Shown here: positions 11,989-45,359 of the stretch, one piece after another | How positions within the stretch are numbered: the first letter of the stretch is position 1 | How the letters are laid out: each line of letters starts with the position of its first letter | DNA from: a phage | Reading direction: 5' to 3' (one strand) | Length of the DNA: 64,000 bases | Assembly: GCA_024614665.1 (NCBI GenBank) | Contig: GCA_024614665.1_4861.1 | The notes under the pieces: model-generated | What the model was told of the DNA's origin: nothing | Databases searched by the model: none | What the model saw: the letters and a program-made list of their open reading frames with translations, nothing else | Program-made: the position numbers and the translations under genes

Positions 11989-12033
11989 ATTTTTAGAAAA
12001 AAAGAAAAAGCTTACTCCCCGAAGGGAGTAAGC
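11989..12033 (-). terminator. intrinsic terminator (minus strand)
   Basis: Stem cttactccc/gggagtaag, then plus-strand A-tract = U-tract after hairpin in minus transcript; follows stop of gene 12065..14365. Confidence 0.6.
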
Positions 12034-12064
12034 TAATCTTAGGCAACGTAATCCTTACGGATTA

Positions 12065-14365
12065 TTAGCCGCCAGCGCCTTCACCGCCAGTACCTGGCTG
12101 GGTAGCACCGCCGCCAACATCACCAGCATTACCACCGTCAGTACCGCCGGTGCCGTTGGAAGTAGTAGTGACGTTGAACGCCAGTTTCTCTTCCACGAAC
12201 TTGGTGATACCTTTAATCCAGATCAGACCAGTGATCGGGCAGTGGCAGATGTGCGCGTTACGAGGCTGTACTGCCAGCTCTTTGCTGGTAGCGCCGTTAC
12301 GCTGGATGTTGATGTTGGTTACCATGATCGGAGACCAGAAGTGGTTACCCCAGTTCAGAACACAGTAAGAACCATCATCAGCGGTTGGAACTTTCAGAAC
12401 CCACTGCAGGCGGCGAGTCCAGCTGCCGTCAGCTTCGTTCTTCACACGCCAGCGGTCATCGTTGGTGGTGATAACTTCGTACTCGTAGCGATCGCCCAGC
12501 AGACGCTGGTCGCCCTGAACCAGCAGCAGCATTGCAGCAGTCGGTTCGTCAGTTGCGATAACAACTTTCGGCAGTGCGTTCGGGTCCGCAGTCAGCAGGC
12601 GCAGAGCCGGCATGAAGCGAGAGTCCTGGATAGCACGAGTTACCTGGTCACCGATACGCTGTACCAGACCCTGACGGGCGTTGATGAGCGCATCTTTGGT
12701 ATCCAGAGACTGGATCACTTTGTCCACTTCGTAGTCGCTTTCGCTGTACCACGGAGCAACCCAGTGACGGCCCAGGCCGCGGATAGCAGGTTTGTCCCAC
12801 GGAGTGATCATGGACGCAGCTGCGTTCTTAACCGCTTCGGTGTAAGACAGAGTCTGAGTGATAGCCAGCATTTCGTTACGGATGTTAACCGCAGAAACGA
12901 GGTCGTCCAGACGTTCGGTGTCGTCGTATTCAACGCCAACCGGAGATTTGGTCATGATCGGAGAACCGTACTGCAGTTTGTAGTTCTCTTGTTCCCAAAT
13001 CGGGTCGAGCAGAAGGCCCTGGGTTCTCCGGTTCTCGTTGGTACGAGTACCGTCGAAGCGCCAGCCCAGCAGCTCCAGTTTCAGGTTGTCGATGATGACT
13101 TTGCCGGTGCCGCTTTCGATATCAACAGCAGTACCAGTTGCATCGTACAGACCTTCGATTTCCAGAGACGGTGCAGTCACGTCAACACGACCAGAGAACT
13201 GACCGTTGGTGAACAGAGACATGCTGATGTTCATGGAATAACGAATGGTGTAATCGTTCTGTGCCAGAGCGGCCAGTGCCGGGATTTCAGCACCTTTCCA
13301 GTCCAGAGACTTGGCGTTCAGGGAGAACACAGTGCGACGGAACTGCAGGACCAGCTCACGACCATCACCTTCAGGAGGACGCTGGAAGGTAGCGAACTGC
13401 ATGTCGCGTACGTTCAGTTTGATCAGCGCACCATCTTTCGCTTCTTCGCTCGGCTTACGCACAGACAGCAGCAGGCTACCCAGCGCTGCACCCGGTGCGA
13501 TTTCGTCGGTTTCATCGTAACCTTCCTGCACGATACCCGGATGGGCAGACAGCTGGAACAGGTTCAGACGACGCTCAGAGAAGCTCAGGTAGTTGGTCGG
13601 ATACGCCGGCACACGACCCAGCTGAACGTTTTCGTTTTCGATGATGTCTTCGGATACGAAGAACTTCGCGTTCTCACCGGTTTCCATCACGTAAGGTACG
13701 ATACGGATAGCATCGTCCTGCAGGACTTTGTGGTTAGACAGCGCGTTATGCAGCGGCTGACGGTTGTCTTCAACCACGTCTTTGGTCAGCAGGGCGTTCA
13801 GGATACCACGAGTTACAGTAGTAACTTTGGTACGAACGGTGATGCCGACGTCGTTGGTGTCCACAGTGATGGTCGGGAACAGGGTTTCTGCAAACTTGGA
13901 TTGAGTTTCCAGAGCACGCACGTTCAGCGTCCAGGTCAGACCCAGGTTTTTGTCCAGGTCTTTGTTGGTGTAGTATTCGGTTGCGACCAGCGGAGTTTTA
14001 CCGTAGTCAGCAGCCAGGGATGCTGCACCAGAAATAGCGATCGGCATATAGCTGGCGTATTCCGGCTTCGCGCTCTCAGCAGCAACACGGGTCATGAAGT
14101 CATCTTCGTGACCGGCAGCAGCCAGAATCATCGCAGAAGCAACCTGAGCAGCGTGGCTCATGGTTTTGCCAGGGTTTACAGCTTCGTAGTGCTGCTGAGC
14201 AGTGTCACGCAGGTTGGTGAAGCCGGCAGCATTTTTACGTACAGATTCGCCAACGGCTACGGTTTGCCATACGTCATTAGCGGAAGAGCCTGCCTTGGCA
14301 GCAGCGACCAGAGCATTGCCCTGCTGAACCAGCTGGTCCAGACTAGCGATACGGGTATCTTTCAT
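12065..14365 (-). CDS. candidate major virion structural protein (possibly major capsid protein), 766 aa
   Basis: Strongly biased codon usage typical of a very highly expressed gene, flanked by terminator; size in the range I recall for phiKZ-type major capsid proteins; no motif-level proof. Confidence 0.35.
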   Translation of the reverse strand: MKDTRIASLDQLVQQGNALVAAAKAGSSANDVWQTVAVGESVRKNAAGFTNLRDTAQQHYEAVNPGKTMSHAAQVASAMILAAAGHEDDFMTRVAAESAKPEYASYMPIAISGAASLAADYGKTPLVATEYYTNKDLDKNLGLTWTLNVRALETQSKFAETLFPTITVDTNDVGITVRTKVTTVTRGILNALLTKDVVEDNRQPLHNALSNHKVLQDDAIRIVPYVMETGENAKFFVSEDIIENENVQLGRVPAYPTNYLSFSERRLNLFQLSAHPGIVQEGYDETDEIAPGAALGSLLLSVRKPSEEAKDGALIKLNVRDMQFATFQRPPEGDGRELVLQFRRTVFSLNAKSLDWKGAEIPALAALAQNDYTIRYSMNISMSLFTNGQFSGRVDVTAPSLEIEGLYDATGTAVDIESGTGKVIIDNLKLELLGWRFDGTRTNENRRTQGLLLDPIWEQENYKLQYGSPIMTKSPVGVEYDDTERLDDLVSAVNIRNEMLAITQTLSYTEAVKNAAASMITPWDKPAIRGLGRHWVAPWYSESDYEVDKVIQSLDTKDALINARQGLVQRIGDQVTRAIQDSRFMPALRLLTADPNALPKVVIATDEPTAAMLLLVQGDQRLLGDRYEYEVITTNDDRWRVKNEADGSWTRRLQWVLKVPTADDGSYCVLNWGNHFWSPIMVTNINIQRNGATSKELAVQPRNAHICHCPITGLIWIKGITKFVEEKLAFNVTTTSNGTGGTDGGNAGDVGGGATQPGTGGEGAGG

Positions 14366-27579: not shown

Positions 27580-27621
27580 ACAAAAAAAGAAAGGGTAAAT
27601 CCCCCACCGAAGTGGGGGATT
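27580..27621 (-). terminator. intrinsic terminator (minus strand)
   Basis: Plus-strand A-tract then stem aatcccccac/gtgggggatt with CGAA loop; follows stop of gene 27633..28892. Confidence 0.65.
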
Positions 27622-27632
27622 CGCCAGTCTAA

Positions 27633-28892
27633 TTACTTAGACTTTTCGTACGCACCGATACCGGCGCTGATGTAGCCGTTAACGCCGGCGATCAGGTTTT
27701 TCTGGCCAGTTGCAACGCAACGTTCGGTCCAGGAGATGTACTGGTTCGCAACGGTGATTGCACGACGTGCAACACGGACGTTGGAAGTCAGTTCAGCGTT
27801 GTCGTCGATCTTCACGCCGTCGATACGTTTCAGCAGCGCCTCAATAGCCCGCTCGTACGATTCTTGAGCCTGGTTATTTTTGTGGTACGCTTTCACGTTC
27901 TCTTCGACTGCTTTACCCAGCTGGTTGAAGAACGCAACCAGAGAAGACAGCGTCTGAGCAGACGGAGTAGAAACAGATTTTTCTACGCTGCCTTCAGCAT
28001 CGATAACGGTGAAGGAAGCTTCCAGGTCATCCCCGTTCACTTTCACGTCAGCTTTACCGATCTGGTTACCCAGCAGTTGAACTTCGCCCGCTTTGCCTGC
28101 AGTGGCTTTGTTAACCGCTGCTGCGAAGCCGCTGTTCAGTTTCCCGCCTTCAACTGCGCTGACCATGCTGGTTGCAGCTTTGACCACTGCATCCTGCTCG
28201 CCGTAGATGCTGCCGATAGTAGACAGAACACCTTTCAGGACGTTGATGTCGTTACCGACGAACTTACCACCGGTGGTCAGGTTCTTAATGAACCCACCGC
28301 TAACGGTGTCTTTCTTCTGCTTGCCCAGGCCACGCAGAGCCGCGTCATATTTCTTAGCGCGCGCCTGAATGGATTTACCCTGGTTGCTGAACTTGAGCCA
28401 GCGATCTTTGATTTTACGGCCTTGTTCTTTCAGCCAGTCGAAGATACGCTGCAGGAACGCTTTGATGTCGTCCCACAGTGATTCACGAGCAACCTGACGG
28501 CGTTTACGTGCGCCGTAAGATTCCTGCGCAACGCTTACGCGGTGATCGAATGCCCAACGTTTACGGATAGATTCCTGCGCAACGTCCAGCTGCTCAGCAG
28601 CTTCGTCAGGCATATCTTCTTCCACTTCCATTGGCTCTTCGCCATCTTCGCCTTCGCCGTCAGCAGCGGCTTCAGCAGCATCAACTGCATCCAGCTGTGC
28701 ATCAGTTTCGTCACCGTCTTCTGCCAGCACGTCTGCTTCTGCGTCCAGCTGGTCGATCGGTTTGGTGTCATGCTCGATGTCGGCCAGGGTACCTTCCACG
28801 GACTCAGCCGGCAGCTCGATGCCATCTGGAACGACAGTGCCTGCGCCTTCGACAGATTCACGAGCGAGTTTACTTTTTACAAAGTTAGCCAT
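27633..28892 (-). CDS. hypothetical protein with acidic N-terminal region, tandem paralogue A (419 aa)
   Basis: Shares N-terminus MANFVKSKLARESVE, internal VAQESIRKRWA and LGKQKK..SGGFI, and C-terminus NGYI(S/G)AGIGAYEKSK with neighbouring gene. Confidence 0.6.
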   Translation of the reverse strand: MANFVKSKLARESVEGAGTVVPDGIELPAESVEGTLADIEHDTKPIDQLDAEADVLAEDGDETDAQLDAVDAAEAAADGEGEDGEEPMEVEEDMPDEAAEQLDVAQESIRKRWAFDHRVSVAQESYGARKRRQVARESLWDDIKAFLQRIFDWLKEQGRKIKDRWLKFSNQGKSIQARAKKYDAALRGLGKQKKDTVSGGFIKNLTTGGKFVGNDINVLKGVLSTIGSIYGEQDAVVKAATSMVSAVEGGKLNSGFAAAVNKATAGKAGEVQLLGNQIGKADVKVNGDDLEASFTVIDAEGSVEKSVSTPSAQTLSSLVAFFNQLGKAVEENVKAYHKNNQAQESYERAIEALLKRIDGVKIDDNAELTSNVRVARRAITVANQYISWTERCVATGQKNLIAGVNGYISAGIGAYEKSK

Positions 28893-28969
28893 CTTTTTCT
28901 ATCCTCTAGGCGGTACGCCGTGTACCGCCATTAATGATTTGTCAACTGACGTTCAGTACGTAAAGCGGA

Positions 28970-30247
28970 TTAAGCTTTAGACTTTTCGTACGCGCCAATA
29001 CCAGCGCCGATGTAGCCGTTCAGGCCGCTGATAACAGTGTTACCAACGTGAGCCACAGCACGGTTCAGAGTCTGGTAGTTACGCACAGCCTGGTCAGCTG
29101 CAGTGCGTGCATTACGCAGCGCTTCCCACTCGCCTTCGTCGTTGGATTTTTTCAGAGCGGCAGCAGCTTTGGCAGCAGCCTCTTCCAGTTTCTCAACGTC
29201 AGCATCGTAGCTGCGGAAGTCTTGCAGGACTTTCTCGAAGCCTTTACCGATAACGTCCAGGGCAGACGCAGCAGATGCCAGTGCAGAAATAGCCGGAGTA
29301 GCGATTTCTTTCGTTTCAGAAACGTCACCCGTCGACAGGAAGGCCACTGCGGTGAATTCCTGACCGCCTGCCAGAGTTTTGGTGCCGGTCTGTACATAGG
29401 CGTTGCCTGGCAGTGCCAGAACTTTCTGACCGCCTTCGCCGTCTTCGAATTGCGGCAGTGCGCGCAGTTTCTTCGCAGCGGTACCAAACAGGGCAACGTC
29501 AACAGCGCCTTTAGCAGCGGTTGCGGTACCGTCTGAAGTTTTGGTGATCGCTACAGCAGAGTCAGCCGCCTGAGAGGACAGCTTGTTGATAGCATCTTTC
29601 GCTTTACCGCCGGTCAGCTCTTTCGCGATAGCGATAGAGTTGGCCACATCGAATTCACCTTCGATAGACAGTTTGCTAATAAAGCCACCAGAAATGTTTT
29701 CTTTCTTCTGTTTGCCGAGCTTACGCAGCATCTCCTGGTAAGCTTTCGCACGTTTCTGCGCGGACTTACCAACGTTGATGTACTTCAGTTTCAGCTCTTT
29801 CGCTTTCGCGATAACTGCTTTACACAGTTCAACGAAGCGTTCGAACAGATCTTTCAGGGTTTCTTTCCAGCCTTCCTGAGCTGCTTTGGTCATGCCACGG
29901 CCACGGCGATAAGATTCGCGTGCCAGTTTGGTACGATCGATAGCCCAACGTTTACGGATAGATTCCTGCGCCACTTCGGTGTGAGCGATGGCTTCTTCAG
30001 GCATCTCTTCACCGTTTTCGATTTTTTCGTCAGCAGCGTCGATAGCAGCTTCGGTACGCTCGGTATCAGCAGCCAGAGTTTCCTGGTCACCATCGAGCTG
30101 TTCCAGCTGACCGTCGATAGACGCAACTTCTGCCAGCTGAACGTCGATGTTCTCTTCTGCCGGTTCAACGTTGCTCAGACCGTCGATTACGTCGCCGGTA
30201 GCTTCAACGGACTCGCGGGCGAGTTTACTTTTTACAAAGTTTGCCAT
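28970..30247 (-). CDS. hypothetical protein with acidic N-terminal region, tandem paralogue B (425 aa)
   Basis: Paralogue of 27633..28892; first about 14 codons and last about 20 codons nearly identical at nucleotide level. Confidence 0.6.
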   Translation of the reverse strand: MANFVKSKLARESVEATGDVIDGLSNVEPAEENIDVQLAEVASIDGQLEQLDGDQETLAADTERTEAAIDAADEKIENGEEMPEEAIAHTEVAQESIRKRWAIDRTKLARESYRRGRGMTKAAQEGWKETLKDLFERFVELCKAVIAKAKELKLKYINVGKSAQKRAKAYQEMLRKLGKQKKENISGGFISKLSIEGEFDVANSIAIAKELTGGKAKDAINKLSSQAADSAVAITKTSDGTATAAKGAVDVALFGTAAKKLRALPQFEDGEGGQKVLALPGNAYVQTGTKTLAGGQEFTAVAFLSTGDVSETKEIATPAISALASAASALDVIGKGFEKVLQDFRSYDADVEKLEEAAAKAAAALKKSNDEGEWEALRNARTAADQAVRNYQTLNRAVAHVGNTVISGLNGYIGAGIGAYEKSKA

Positions 30248-30303
30248 TTGTTTCGGTTCCTTTGGTTATAACCCAATTACACGCCCCTAGATAAGGGGCC
30301 CCC

Positions 30304-30861
30304 TTAGGGACGTGCGATTTTTAAAAACACTGCTAACGACGAGATCATATCGGATAACCCGTTCGGACGTGTCAACCAACGTGCCAGCAGTTCGTGGTCT
30401 GCATAAGATAATAGACGCCGGTCAGGCGTGTACGTCTGATGCGCAGTTCCCATTTGGCGAACTTGCCCACTACGGCCGTAAGCCGCAGCAAGAAGTCGTG
30501 AGCCCAGGGAACCGGTTCGCTCTACTTGCTTGGTAGAGTGGATATCGTTCATGTACGATACCAGAAGAACGGACCACTGTCCTGTTGACACTGTACGGCG
30601 TTTACCGTCAAGTATGAACGATGCAGTTTCGTTATAGAACGTATTAAACGTAAAACCGACCTGCGGATATTCGTCATATAATACTTGTTGGACAGAGTCA
30701 GCGCCCATCATGCGGAAATACGGCAGCACGACGGCTGCAGCTTCCAGGGTTTCATGTATCAGTTCGTCGTCATGAACCAGCACGGGGTTTTGGGTCAGTT
30801 TCGCCATGTAGTTTTTAATCAACTTCTCGGCGAGGTTAAAATTCTGGTCATTGTCAAACAT
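30304..30861 (-). CDS. hypothetical protein (185 aa)
   Basis: ORF track. Confidence 0.5.
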   Translation of the reverse strand: MFDNDQNFNLAEKLIKNYMAKLTQNPVLVHDDELIHETLEAAAVVLPYFRMMGADSVQQVLYDEYPQVGFTFNTFYNETASFILDGKRRTVSTGQWSVLLVSYMNDIHSTKQVERTGSLGSRLLAAAYGRSGQVRQMGTAHQTYTPDRRLLSYADHELLARWLTRPNGLSDMISSLAVFLKIARP

Positions 30862-32968: not shown

Positions 32969-34231
32969 ATGATGAGTAACGAGACCGATAAGAACGATCC
33001 GGGGTATGACCCGAATACCGACTACGACAATTCGTATCAAAACCCGAATAATATCGATGCAGTACCATCGGTCGCCGACTACTTTGACCGTCGACTGTCC
33101 GATGCGAAACCCACCACGGCGTACAACGTTAATGATGAGTTATCGGGTTGGAATGACCGTATCCGTCTTACGTTAGGTTTGGGTCTGGCTGCGCAGCGTG
33201 TGACCAACCCCTACATGGGGTTCAACCATATGATGGCGTCGAACCCGACGCCTGTTAACCGTGAGTACGGTGGCCTAACCTTCATTACCCGCCCTGACTT
33301 CAACTTGTGCTTTGACAACATTGCCAACTCGCGCAAGATGTCGAACATGGCTTCTCAGCCGAAATCGTCACTCGACTATTCCATTCTGGCAGCGTTAGAC
33401 CCAGATTTTGAATTGGGGTTCTCTGATTCACCGATGGAAGATGGGCGAAGAAAGAACCGTTTGGGCACGCCATTCATGAAGGACATTATGTTTGACAATC
33501 TTCAGGCATTCATACCATTGCTGAGTACGCAGATGCTGAGCCTCTCGGGGATGCCTGACCAGTCTGTCGATAACTGGATGTCTGAAGAAGGTTTAATGCG
33601 CGAACAGTGGGGTATGGTTGACTCCACACATGAAATCAATAACCAGTACAGCATGTCAATGTCGCTGAACAACCCATACGGCAACCCCATCATGCGAATG
33701 ATGGGCGTGTGGCTGGAATATATGTCCGGCATTAAGATGGGTAAGTTCAAACCGAAGATGCGTAATTCCATCCAGCGTCGCATTGACTACCAGTCGAGGA
33801 TGTACGGGTTTAAATACGATGCGCTCGGAAACATCACTCGTTTCTGGACAGCGTGTGTTTGTTGGCCAATGAACGATAACGCCGGTCAAATGGCGAATGT
33901 CGATAACACCAAGCCTCAATTAAATGACGACACCACAATTAACCTCAACTGGCAATGCATCGGGGCGCGCTTCGATGACCCATTGTACATGGAGATGTTC
34001 AACTTGACGGTGTCTATGTTTAACCCGGATATGATGCCGCAACCAGGGAGCGTTGCAGCGGGCAACTTTATCCCGATTGCTGAAGACCAGCTTGTGCCGA
34101 TTGCACCACAGCTACTACCGCTGTTCAACTACTACGGCTATCCGCACATCGACTCCCTGCGTCGTAAACTGACCTGGTATGTTTATCAGGCAGATTACCA
34201 ATTCATCCTTAAACGAGCGGGCTTACTGTAA
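32969..34231 (+). CDS. hypothetical protein (about 420 aa)
   Basis: ORF track; tandem ATGs 32969/32972 with GGAG RBS; stop overlaps next start (TAATG). Confidence 0.55.
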   Translation: MMSNETDKNDPGYDPNTDYDNSYQNPNNIDAVPSVADYFDRRLSDAKPTTAYNVNDELSGWNDRIRLTLGLGLAAQRVTNPYMGFNHMMASNPTPVNREYGGLTFITRPDFNLCFDNIANSRKMSNMASQPKSSLDYSILAALDPDFELGFSDSPMEDGRRKNRLGTPFMKDIMFDNLQAFIPLLSTQMLSLSGMPDQSVDNWMSEEGLMREQWGMVDSTHEINNQYSMSMSLNNPYGNPIMRMMGVWLEYMSGIKMGKFKPKMRNSIQRRIDYQSRMYGFKYDALGNITRFWTACVCWPMNDNAGQMANVDNTKPQLNDDTTINLNWQCIGARFDDPLYMEMFNLTVSMFNPDMMPQPGSVAAGNFIPIAEDQLVPIAPQLLPLFNYYGYPHIDSLRRKLTWYVYQADYQFILKRAGLL

Positions 34232-43192: not shown

Positions 43193-44491
43193 TTAGGTGA
43201 TGTGGAATTTAGGGATGTACTCTTTAACCACGGTTTCACGACCGTGCATCGCACCCATTGCAGTGGTCATAACGTTCGAGAAGCCGGATGAGATATCCGC
43301 AGCGATTGCCCGTGGCTCTTCTGCTTTGTGTGCAGAGGCGCACGCCGCACAACAGTCTACGTGACCTTGCTGACATAAGATGGGTCGGCGGAGTCGAACA
43401 ACTTTACCGAATTGCGTTTTCAAATACTCTTCGGTGAGTTGGGTAACTTTACCGTTAATCATCGCGTTCATGCCAACATAACGCTTGTAGTTATACTGGT
43501 TAATTACAAGTGCATGAGTCAGTTTTGTCCCGCAATCTCCAGGCACGATTTTGTGGTTCTGGAAGATCATCTGGATGATACGTACCTGCTCACCACCCTT
43601 AGCGGTTTCTGCACCACGCATGAAGGAACCTTCACGAGTGTCATTGAACTTCTCTACCAGGTACTTCATCCCGGTCTGATCAACTTCCATCAGACTCGTT
43701 GGGATTAAGGTAAAATCTGCACCTTCTTTAAAAGCGGTCTGAATACCATACATCAGCATCAGCTTACGGCGACGCATACGCGCTTTAGGCGAGCTGTAGA
43801 ACTCAACGGACTGGTCGCCACTCAACCACTCTTTATCAAGTTCGTCGAGAGCTTTTTCAATCATAACGATAACCGCAGGGTTATCCAGTTCGTCTTTGTG
43901 CTTCAACAGCAACGCATCACGTACCTTATACGCGTCAGGATGCGTTGTAAGGCTTCTAATTGTTCCTGTTGGGGCAATCCCACGACACAACGGAGCAAGC
44001 TCGTGTAGACCCCCTACAAAGCGTCCTATCATGTATGGCCGAATCGCGTCTTCGTTGTCTGGATCGGTGTCATCGTATTCCACACATCGTTCGTACATCT
44101 CCTTACGGTAGGCTAGCGGGTCACGGGACTCTGCCAGATACGGGAGACGGGTACCGAATGCGTAATAGATAGCAATCCAGTTAAAGACATAGCGACCCAC
44201 GGTAGTCGGAATGGGACCAGCTAGACCTGGGTACATCTCAGGACGCAATTCAAACTGCTCTTCCGGCACGAACAGCTCTTCATCTTTTTTGCACCCTTCA
44301 ATCGGCACCCATTTAATTTCTTCGTTTTCCCAGTAGTGGGGCAAGCCGTCAATGTAGTTCAGGTCGTATTGCTCAGGTGGCTCACCTTTTTCATTAAAGA
44401 TTGCCACGTTGAAAACCGCAATACGCCACACCAGTCTACGCCAAGCTTCTGCTTTACACGCAGCGACCAGATAATCAATCTTGTTCATCAT
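43193..44491 (-). CDS. hypothetical protein (432 aa) with C-terminal cysteine cluster
   Basis: ORF track; tandem ATGs with GGAGGTAG RBS; C-terminal CQQGHVDCCAACASAH. Confidence 0.55.
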   Translation of the reverse strand: MMNKIDYLVAACKAEAWRRLVWRIAVFNVAIFNEKGEPPEQYDLNYIDGLPHYWENEEIKWVPIEGCKKDEELFVPEEQFELRPEMYPGLAGPIPTTVGRYVFNWIAIYYAFGTRLPYLAESRDPLAYRKEMYERCVEYDDTDPDNEDAIRPYMIGRFVGGLHELAPLCRGIAPTGTIRSLTTHPDAYKVRDALLLKHKDELDNPAVIVMIEKALDELDKEWLSGDQSVEFYSSPKARMRRRKLMLMYGIQTAFKEGADFTLIPTSLMEVDQTGMKYLVEKFNDTREGSFMRGAETAKGGEQVRIIQMIFQNHKIVPGDCGTKLTHALVINQYNYKRYVGMNAMINGKVTQLTEEYLKTQFGKVVRLRRPILCQQGHVDCCAACASAHKAEEPRAIAADISSGFSNVMTTAMGAMHGRETVVKEYIPKFHIT

Positions 44492-45359
44492 CTACCTCCG
44501 CGTCCCCACTAGCGTATATGACTTTCAACGCTTCCAATCCTTTCCGCAAGATTTCTCCAGGCGGGACGTTGTCGACGTTCAACAGGGCAAGGTTCTTTTC
44601 TAAGTCACCGTAAGCCCCATCAAACTCCGCATGAGGAATAATCGATAAGCCCACCGCATACATCGTCAGCAAATCAATTTCGCTAACATCTTCTACGCGA
44701 AACTCTAACGACTGCTGCACCACCGTTAAGTCTGGCTCAGCAGGCAGATTCATAAAGACAAACGCTGACGGGTTCTCAGGGAACAACCGCAAGTAAGCGA
44801 CGATACGCTCTTGGCGCTCATCGTCGCTGTTTCGTTTCTGGCTTTCCAACGACTCTGCTGCTAAGAAGTTTTCCATCACGGTAAGCACGCGTGGGCTGAC
44901 AACAGTAATCAGGTCTTCGAAGTGCAGGTTTTCGTCACCGTAAACATAACGACACATGTTCTCCAGGATATACTCTGGTGTCTCACCAGAGGAGACAATC
45001 CCGTAAAGGGCATCACTGTCTTCGAACTCCTCGAAGGCTTCCAACACACCGTGAAGGATACGTACGGTTTCTTTCGGTTTCTGGAAGACGATTTGTGGAT
45101 TAAGTCCGATACCGAGGCGGTTGCCTAATCCAACCGCTACCTTCACGATAATGGATTCCAGACGGACAGTTTCGTCCGCGTGGTCAGACAACGGGTTGCT
45201 ATAAACATCGGATAACGCCACATCGTAACCGTAATCCATACCGAGCGTCACTAAATCTAGCATCGGTGCTGCACGACCTTCGTGACGGTTGACTGTCAAT
45301 ACAGCCGCATAGTCGGTATAAATATCAATCATGGCTCTGTTCCATAGTGAAAAGGGCAT
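44475..45359 (-). CDS. hypothetical protein (294 aa)
   Basis: ORF track. Confidence 0.5.
   Translation of the reverse strand: MPFSLWNRAMIDIYTDYAAVLTVNRHEGRAAPMLDLVTLGMDYGYDVALSDVYSNPLSDHADETVRLESIIVKVAVGLGNRLGIGLNPQIVFQKPKETVRILHGVLEAFEEFEDSDALYGIVSSGETPEYILENMCRYVYGDENLHFEDLITVVSPRVLTVMENFLAAESLESQKRNSDDERQERIVAYLRLFPENPSAFVFMNLPAEPDLTVVQQSLEFRVEDVSEIDLLTMYAVGLSIIPHAEFDGAYGDLEKNLALLNVDNVPPGEILRKGLEALKVIYASGDAEVDDEQD

Follow-up and report, generated by a model that had tools for sequence, protein, structure and literature searches.

The alike ends of two tandem, probable internal head protein genes in an SPN3US-type jumbo phage

Two adjacent genes on the minus strand of a 64,000-nucleotide stretch of phage DNA (contig GCA_024614665.1_4861.1 of assembly GCA_024614665.1; the whole stretch is referred to as the window) raise the question of what keeps both ends of two diverged proteins alike. 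Gene A encodes 425 and gene B 419 amino acids (aa); both open reading frames lie exactly where the first-pass annotation, made from the letters of the sequence, had placed them, and their products align over the full length with 34% identity (BLASTP, E 1e-50). The answer developed here is that the pair very probably encodes the paralogous major internal head ('ejection') proteins of an SPN3US-type jumbo phage, members of the Pfam family PF12699, including their processing and the signals inferred at their ends, and that the ends are alike mainly because the peptide signals they share are under selection.

The pattern itself is clear. Both proteins start with the same 15 residues (MANFVKSKLARESVE), share the internal motif VAQESIRKRWA, whose AQE ends at residue 95 of the 425-aa and residue 107 of the 419-aa protein, and finish with NGYIGAGIGAYEKSKA and NGYISAGIGAYEKSK, according to the pattern NGYI(G/S)AGIGAYEKSK. 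Over the whole codon alignment the DNA identity is 589/1197 (49%), with a median of 0.47 in 45-nt windows, and it reaches 39/45 (87%) over the first 15 codons, 49/60 (82%) over the last 20 codons and about 90% around AQESIRKRW. The longest exact runs in common comprise 29 nt (AQE block), 23 nt (codons 3-10) and 17 nt (C-terminal end). The interior has thus indeed diverged relative to the ends, as first described, and the near-identity of the termini is real, even if 'almost identical' slightly overstates the 87% and 82% measured on the codon alignment. The N-terminal region of about 100 residues is highly acidic, as had also been noticed: residues 1-100 hold 27 D+E versus 8 K+R in gene A and 34 versus 4 in gene B.

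The gene pair, its family and its maturation sites

A 4-kb stretch around the pair shows 99.0-99.5% DNA identity to the Salmonella jumbo phage SPN3US, SEGD1 and Proteus phage 7. The ortholog of gene A is SPN3US gp53 (YP_009153347; 424/425 residues identical, with T289S as the sole change), and that of gene B is gp54 (YP_009153348; 417/419, with V218A and A268T). The window agrees with SPN3US in the tandem order, the leader, the AxE sites and the flanking genes, with 99% DNA identity and strain-level substitutions as the only differences. Both genes carry the RefSeq label 'internal head protein', match PHROG 2497 ('internal head protein') and match PF12699 (phiKZ-like internal head proteins) with 253.7 bits (E 4.5e-75, gene A) and 193.2 bits (E 1.1e-56, gene B) against a gathering cut-off of 27 bits, the matches spanning profile positions 2-387 of 387. 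The initial suggestion of inner-head proteins is therefore well founded, given the membership in PF12699 and a distance of one or two residues from published high-copy ejection proteins (PMC5694885, PMC10052503).

In the SPN3US papers, which concern proteins 99.5-99.8% identical to the present ones, both are described as abundant late products, of which the prohead takes up more than 600 copies each. Ali et al. 2017 (PMC5694885) grouped gp53 and gp54 as 'paralog family A', pfam12699-like and with more than 600 copies each per capsid; their first 15 residues, identical despite 34% overall identity, were likened to the capsid-targeting sequences of T4, and particles of a gp243 mutant were found to lack both proteins. 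In protease-deficient 'mottled' capsids, uncleaved gp53 and gp54 form a T=1 inner shell (PMC7552025, Heymann et al. 2020).

The prohead protease gp245 cuts gp53 at ARE-12, AQE-95 and AQE-125 and gp54 at AQE-124 and ARE-137 (PMC10052503 Table 2, Scheuch et al. 2023), and the recombinant enzyme also cuts gp53 in vitro (PMC7411985, Reilly et al. 2020). Mature gp53 starts at G126 (GWKETLK...), after AQE-125, and mature gp54 at S138 (SLWDDIK...), after ARE-137 (PMC10052503). According to the SPN3US papers, the acidic N-terminal region of roughly 125-137 residues is removed by gp245 in several pieces, and the helical C-terminal bodies of 30-31 kDa, which are counted among the ejection proteins, remain inside the DNA-filled head. 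Residual peptides of the gp53 propeptide were noted to be unusually numerous (PMC10052503).

Against this background, the removal of an acidic propeptide, which the first-pass annotation had proposed, agrees with the long N-terminal propeptides that gp245 takes off at AxE motifs (PMC5694885, PMC10052503). The S/A/G-x-E consensus from which it argued is that of phiKZ; the specificity in SPN3US is AxE and narrower. AQE/SIRKRW (here and below, a slash marks the cut) is a genuine site in gp53, where the AQE-95 cut was detected by mass spectrometry (PMC10052503), and the corresponding AQE-107 cut of gp54 is unreported. The mature protein does not begin at SIRKRW, as had been supposed, since AQE-95 is an internal cut of the 125-residue propeptide of gp53.

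Origin of the alike ends

The family was followed across 21 phage lineages, with both paralogs collected from 14 annotated relatives (Seoulvirus, Erskinevirus, Machinavirus, Wellingtonvirus and Derbicusvirus) and six metagenomic or metagenome-assembled genome (MAG) lineages. The tandem cluster is kept in the 21 lineages, and all collected relatives hold the tandem pair. The check on presence and copy number that had been recommended for this family showed that the number varies: each of the SPN3US, Erwinia and Cronobacter relatives has two copies, a MAG contig associated with Shewanella (L019:971-5204) and a metagenomic contig (L022:2501-6263) have three PF12699 genes in tandem, and the locus of the distant Vibrio phage pVa-21 (L007:4004-5236) has one. 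The third copies carry the leader of their own genome (MANFV..., MSNFY...). In the phages SPFM5/6/20/7/10/12 (LR535903, LR535905, LR535917, LR535904, LR535908, LR535911), tblastn matches to the gp53 ortholog were fragmentary and in multiple pieces, and the annotated SPFM proteins (P0052-P0058, about 399 aa) gave no Pfam match despite high HMMER scores, which suggests that these records are frameshifted or error-rich at the gp53 locus.

Among 58 sequences, the invariant positions include N3, F4, A10, E12, S13, E95, S96, R100, W101, E111, S112, G408 and A419, and E125 is nearly invariant. The termini and the AQE block are conserved in every family member examined, far beyond chance, and since the invariant positions fall on the leader, on each AxE/S site and on the G/A-rich C-terminal motif, purifying selection on peptide signals is indicated.

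Besides these fixed positions, the ends contain residues that vary from genome to genome and are common to the paralogs within each. Both copies read MANFVKSKL in the window, MANFAQRKI in STsAS and SNU29, and MANFAQRKV in Caitlin; MNFMQ(K/Q)RA is found in the copies of CR5, SNU38 and Phobos, MNFKQRQAARESV in both copies of lineage L020, MSNFWKQKVARES in two copies of L022 and ..ARESME in both copies of L023. The C-terminal tails ...EKSK, ...KK, ...KA and ...KG are each common to the paralogs of one genome as well. The identity of A and B within a genome exceeds the cross-genome identity of A versus B by 0.19 in columns 1-15 and by 0.08 in the last 13 columns, compared with values of -0.02 to +0.05 elsewhere. 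Quartets drawn from 17 representative genomes were concerted rather than orthologous in columns 1-9 (337 versus 12), columns 10-15 (69 versus 4) and the last six columns (72 versus 19), and were overwhelmingly orthologous in the interior (531 concerted, 10082 orthologous). The Fisher p-values of these counts are inflated, because taxa recur among the quartets and the MANF/MNF indel contributes two columns; despite this inflation, the concerted effect size is very large. At leader residues 1-9 and at the last few residues, the paralogs of one genome therefore change in concert. A literature search of incomplete coverage found no earlier report that linked these proteins to gene conversion or concerted evolution.

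Gene conversion and strong selection had both been offered as causes of the terminal identity. Recurrent short-tract conversion between the tandem paralogs, and not peptide selection, could keep the 5' and 3' ends alike, and would account for residues 1-9 and C-terminal tail states that are common to the paralogs in a genome and different between genomes. It would also fit the codon-2 indel (MANF versus MNF), which is present in both copies, and the four single-base changes that the SPN3US lineage has in both copies relative to STsAS and SNU29. When only synonymous differences are considered, that is, in quartets with all four residues identical, columns 1-9 give 56 concerted, 15 orthologous and 16 crossed cases, and the same-codon fraction is 0.74 within versus 0.64 across genomes. 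This conversion-like signal is modest and confined to roughly the first nine codons, so that the synonymous-site support for conversion is weak. Already in columns 10-15, the counts turn to 40 concerted, 78 orthologous and 45 crossed (same-codon fraction 0.43 versus 0.40), and codons there keep paralog-specific synonymous states across the clade, e.g., GAG in A and GAA in B; the interior gives 547, 531 and 431 (0.58 versus 0.56).

Several further observations speak against conversion. In the window, the two genes use the same codon at identical residues in 8/14 cases in the leader, 8/10 in the AQE block, 12/16 at the C-terminus and 59/108 elsewhere. As there is no clear excess at the ends, the DNA similarity there comes largely from peptide conservation and codon bias, and recent gene conversion was dismissed as the chief source of the DNA identity at the ends of this pair. 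It was likewise rejected for the 29-nt AQESIRKRW run, where the within-genome and cross-genome same-codon fractions are alike (0.55 versus 0.53) and codon preference together with peptide conservation is reflected. The L020 leader combines 13 identical residues with 7 synonymous differences, V9 of Caitlin is GTG in A and GTC in B, and an Ile codon of Wellington is ATC versus ATT. The 5' untranslated regions (UTRs) are paralog-specific, so that a converted tract could measure about 35 nt at most. Finally, the SPN3US changes (GCA CAA CGT AAA ATC to GTA AAA AGT AAA CTC) are each the sole one-step route from the shared ancestral codon; parallel selection would yield the same codons, and the four changes do not discriminate between the two explanations. 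Taken as the reason for the alike ends, conversion thus appears unlikely, with perhaps one chance in a few of being correct.

A second alternative places the selection on the messenger RNA (mRNA): A/T-rich, weakly structured first codons, favourable for initiation in highly expressed genes, could by themselves be the main source of the 5' similarity. Codons 2-9 are indeed unusually A/T-rich (AAC TTT GTA AAA AGT AAA) for G+C-rich, codon-biased genes, and the cross-genome same-codon fraction is raised in columns 1-9 (0.64 versus 0.56 in the interior). Such selection cannot, however, account for the invariant N3, F4, A10, E12 and S13, which are encoded by varying codons, nor for the mapped cut at E12, the genome-specific co-variation of amino acids and the conservation of the C-terminus, and it is considered improbable.

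Selection on shared peptide signals consequently stands as the main cause of the alike ends, and their genome-specific concert is best explained by one partner that reads all paralogs; micro-conversion may contribute at the very 5' end. With respect to the two causes originally named, selection explains most of the terminal identity, and the trace of conversion is restricted to codons 1-9.

Predicted structure, transcription unit and neighbouring features

An AlphaFold2 (AF2) model of gene A, built from the 58-sequence alignment (predicted local distance difference test, pLDDT, 82.8; predicted template modelling score, pTM, 0.81), is confident and predicts long helices at residues 34-77, 84-100, 119-175, 201-238, 320-367 and 372-418 and a beta region at 277-316, with low confidence at 14-28 and 109-112, adjoining cut sites. 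Searches of BFVD returned 101 matches at E<=0.001 (best TM 0.8), all of them virion or internal head proteins of jumbo phages. Sequence comparison with the PDB gave no match at E<=1. After ejection, the mature helical domain might act as a ClyA/Hbl-type alpha-pore-forming module that inserts in the host envelope or in the early-infection vesicle: internal head proteins are ejected into the cell, the sub-threshold part of the Foldseek PDB list consists mostly of tripartite alpha-pore-forming toxins (MakA/B, SmhA/B, HblL1, NheA, AhlB), and the long helical bundle and beta tongue of those toxins resemble the gene A model. The same Foldseek search gave no significant match, ClyA and the tripartite alpha-pore-forming toxins included, and this lead is very doubtful. 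That the genes belong to an unrelated non-virion family in which the AxE motifs are coincidental has a negligible probability, as no point in favour of it was found and it is already refuted by the identity of about 99% to SPN3US, the RefSeq label, PF12699, PHROG 2497 and the published virion proteomics.

The features of the locus are collected in Table 1.

Table 1. Coordinates of the gene pair, its cleavage sites, shared motifs and flanking elements in the window.
Feature	Coordinates	Strand	Basis or remark
Gene A, 425 aa	28970..30247	-	Open reading frame listing
Gene B, 419 aa	27633..28892	-	Open reading frame listing
Gene A leader, codons 1-15 (MANFVKSKLARESVE), with ARE-12/S site	30203..30247	-	gp53 ARE-12 cut in PMC10052503 Table 2
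Gene A VAQESIRKRWA, codons 92-102, AQE-95/S	29942..29974	-	Cut detected by mass spectrometry; aligns with phiKZ gp93 GME-119/S
Gene A ARE-111/S motif, predicted site	29915..29923	-	E111 and S112 invariant in 58 sequences; aligns with phiKZ gp93 ALE-137
Gene A AQE-125/G maturation site	29873..29881	-	PMC10052503 Fig. 3, Table 2
Gene A C-terminal motif GLNGYIGAGIGAYEKSKA	28973..29026	-	tblastn; family-wide G408, G411, A415-I417, A419, Y420
Gene B leader, codons 1-15 (MANFVKSKLARESVE)	28848..28892	-	Same protein sequence as gene A, 6 synonymous differences
Gene B VAQESIRKRWA, codons 104-114, AQE-107/S motif, predicted site	28551..28583	-	Motif position
Gene B AQE-124/S internal propeptide cut	28521..28529	-	PMC10052503 Table 2
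Gene B ARE-137/S maturation site	28482..28490	-	PMC10052503
Gene B C-terminal motif GVNGYISAGIGAYEKSK	27636..27686	-	tblastn
8-bp hairpin GGCGGTAC-ACGGC-GTACCGCC, no U-tract, in the 77-nt A-B spacer	28909..28929	-	Fold analysis
Intrinsic terminator after gene B: 11-bp stem, UUCG loop, U-run	27583..27622	-	-23.3 kcal/mol, z -3.9
56-nt spacer upstream of gene A (GGGGGCCCCTTATCTAGGGGCGTGTAATTGGGTTATAACC...)	30248..30303	-	Nearly invariant across the clade
Upstream gene, PF25618 (phiKZ gp91 vertex-binding protein)	30304-30861	-	34.8 bits versus cut-off 27; hypothetical in SPN3US annotation

The pair appears to form a two-gene transcription unit. The spacer upstream of gene A is near-invariant although the adjacent proteins are only about 56% identical between phages; its 24-nt core occurs once in the window and its fold is no better than that of shuffled sequences (z -0.5). 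The late promoter and the 5' UTR of this very highly expressed unit probably lie in this spacer. A scan for sigma-70 promoters gave nothing above the shuffled expectation, a null result to be expected because the phage uses its own RNA polymerases. The hairpin between the genes lies 2 nt upstream of the ribosome-binding site of gene B (AGAGGA, 28902-28907); in 12 related phages its stem sequence varies and the pairing is kept, with 3/5 scored pairs changed on both sides, and it may serve RNA processing or stability, or act as an attenuator that sets the gp53:gp54 ratio. The terminator stands at the same place in all relatives, again with a varying stem sequence and with pairing and TTCG loop preserved. 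As to composition, the most G+C-rich 2-kb bins of the window are 12001-14000 (0.544) and 28001-30000 (0.534), compared with about 0.48-0.50; the latter corresponds to the gp53/gp54 pair and has the strongest AT skew (-0.159), consistent with a strong codon bias in highly expressed genes.

A third leader-bearing protein in the window was considered and rejected: the only look-alike, MENF..LAAESLE (44475-44876, minus strand), starts at an internal Met of a longer annotated SPN3US coding sequence. No further copy of the C-terminal motif was found elsewhere in the window by tblastn. Farther away, the 420-aa product of the gene at 32969-34231 (plus strand) has a very strong match, of 610.9 bits, to PF23971 ('putative phage tail tube protein'); its name in the SPN3US annotation is 'putative virion structural protein 3'. 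In the protein clusters P0001, P0007, P0027, P0031, P0049, P0066, P0067 and P0072, many copies are labelled as proteins of Salmonella, E. coli or Enterobacter, and one such homolog bears the name 'preprotein translocase subunit YajC, partial'; these bacterial labels point to jumbo-phage DNA in bacterial assemblies and to at least one misannotation.

Comparison with phiKZ and T4 internal head proteins

The paralogs of phiKZ have a common leader of their own (gp93 ...DKLSLE13/S, gp94 ...LDSLE11/G, gp95 ...LDSLE13/D, gp97 ...VASLE13/N). As these leaders end in a phiKZ-type site, the leader tracks the protease specificity of each phage. In a profile alignment (hhalign), the gp53/gp54 family matches phiKZ gp93 with a probability of 91% (E 9e-7) and four sites in register: ARE12/S with SLE13/S, AQE95/SIR with GME119/SID, ARE111/SY with ALE137/NY, and AQE125/GWKETLK with SLE156/DLKEKLK. 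The gene order also corresponds, since the PF25618 gene upstream of the pair mirrors phiKZ, where gp89-gp91 are followed by the internal-head-protein operon gp92-gp97. In the phiKZ capsid structure published in 2024, residues 14-84 of gp93 and 19-134 of gp162 are ordered and fibre-like and act as cement between hexamers on the inside of the capsid; each fragment ends at protease sites, and cleavage releases the helical C-terminal domains (PMC11297242). By homology, the acidic segment behind the leader of gp53 and gp54 probably attaches to the inside of the capsid while this is being assembled, and some of it may stay there.

A scheme for the whole family can be drawn from these comparisons. 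The conserved ends would be functional peptide signals held by purifying selection. The leader of 12-15 residues ending in ARE/S would serve, as in the internal proteins of T4, as a capsid-targeting and first-cleavage signal; it is specific to each genome and common to all of its paralogs (MANFVKSKLARE here, MNFMQ.RAARE in CR5-like phages, ...L(D/A)SLE in phiKZ), which implies that a single partner, be it the protease, the core or scaffold, or gp243, reads all copies. Short-tract gene conversion might add to this at codons 1-9. Residues 13-95 of gp53, between the leader site and the later AxE sites, would bind the inner capsid during assembly, with a part possibly kept as cement, and the G/A-rich C-terminal motif would represent a family-wide structural element of which only the last few residues are genome-specific. 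In its most explicit form, the first nine or so and the last few residues would be genome-specific 'address tags' read by a single receptor (core/scaffold, gp243 or protease), with occasional micro-conversion, and the segment from the leader to AQE-95 would be retained as capsid cement as in phiKZ gp93. In this form it is a working proposal, rated as somewhat less likely than not. If true, it would provide a concrete, testable targeting code for the loading of thousands of ejection proteins into jumbo-phage heads.

Several points weigh against the interpretation as a whole. The function is transferred from the near-identical SPN3US proteins. The AQE-107 cut of gp54 was not detected in published mass spectrometry (PMC10052503). 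As to a possible capsid retention of gp53 13-95, the SPN3US papers report only residual propeptide peptides, and AF2 packs this segment as helices on the body of the protein and not as an extended fibre. What the mature PF12699 domain does once it has been ejected is still given as unknown (bioRxiv 10.64898/2026.04.21.720040).

Much of what is said here was already known from SPN3US, namely the family of gp53 and gp54, their abundance and paralogy, the identical leader and the cleavage sites, and the first-pass annotation was essentially right. The additions are modest: the extreme ends evolve in concert, and the cleavage sites align one by one with those of phiKZ gp93, a protein whose N-terminal fragment serves as capsid cement. 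PF12699 proteins are among the most abundant components of jumbo-phage heads and enter the host by injection; their role continues to be called an unsolved problem. The present pair represents the SPN3US model case, and the additions bear on how internal head proteins are addressed to the prohead.

Among the closest known systems are, besides SPN3US gp53 and gp54, the internal head or inner body proteins gp93, gp94, gp95, gp97, gp162 and gp163 of phiKZ, which share the PF12699 family, the predicted fold and the place downstream of gp89-gp91 homologs. They also share a short leader ending in a protease site and an acidic N-terminal region with several x-E cuts, and they are high-copy, ejected proteins (PMC11297242; bioRxiv 10.64898/2026.04.21.720040). 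This similarity is seen only by profile methods (hhalign, E 9e-7), and tblastn gave no phiKZ match to the gene pair. About 8 paralogs exist in phiKZ, each with roughly 100-200 copies, compared with two at more than 600 each here; the phiKZ sites are of the ...SLE and S/A/G-x-E type, whereas those of the present proteins are ...ARE and AxE, and capsid-bound N-terminal fragments have been visualised for phiKZ only. With IPI, IPII, IPIII and Alt of T4, the likeness is one of principle only. In both systems, diverged head-internal proteins bear a short common N-terminal leader. The capsid-targeting sequence of the T4 internal proteins terminates in the motif of the prohead protease and is lost during maturation; ejection takes the proteins out of the head together with the DNA (PMC7411985; analogy in PMC5694885). 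Correspondingly, gene A and gene B encode an identical 15-residue leader with ARE-12/S, and the ARE-12 cut is reported for gp53. No homology to T4 IPI/II/III or Alt was detected, the Pfam and PHROG matches being restricted to PF12699 and PHROGs 2497, 6807 and 12254. In contrast to the T4 proteins with a capsid-targeting sequence, the leader is here followed by a further acidic propeptide of roughly 110-125 residues.

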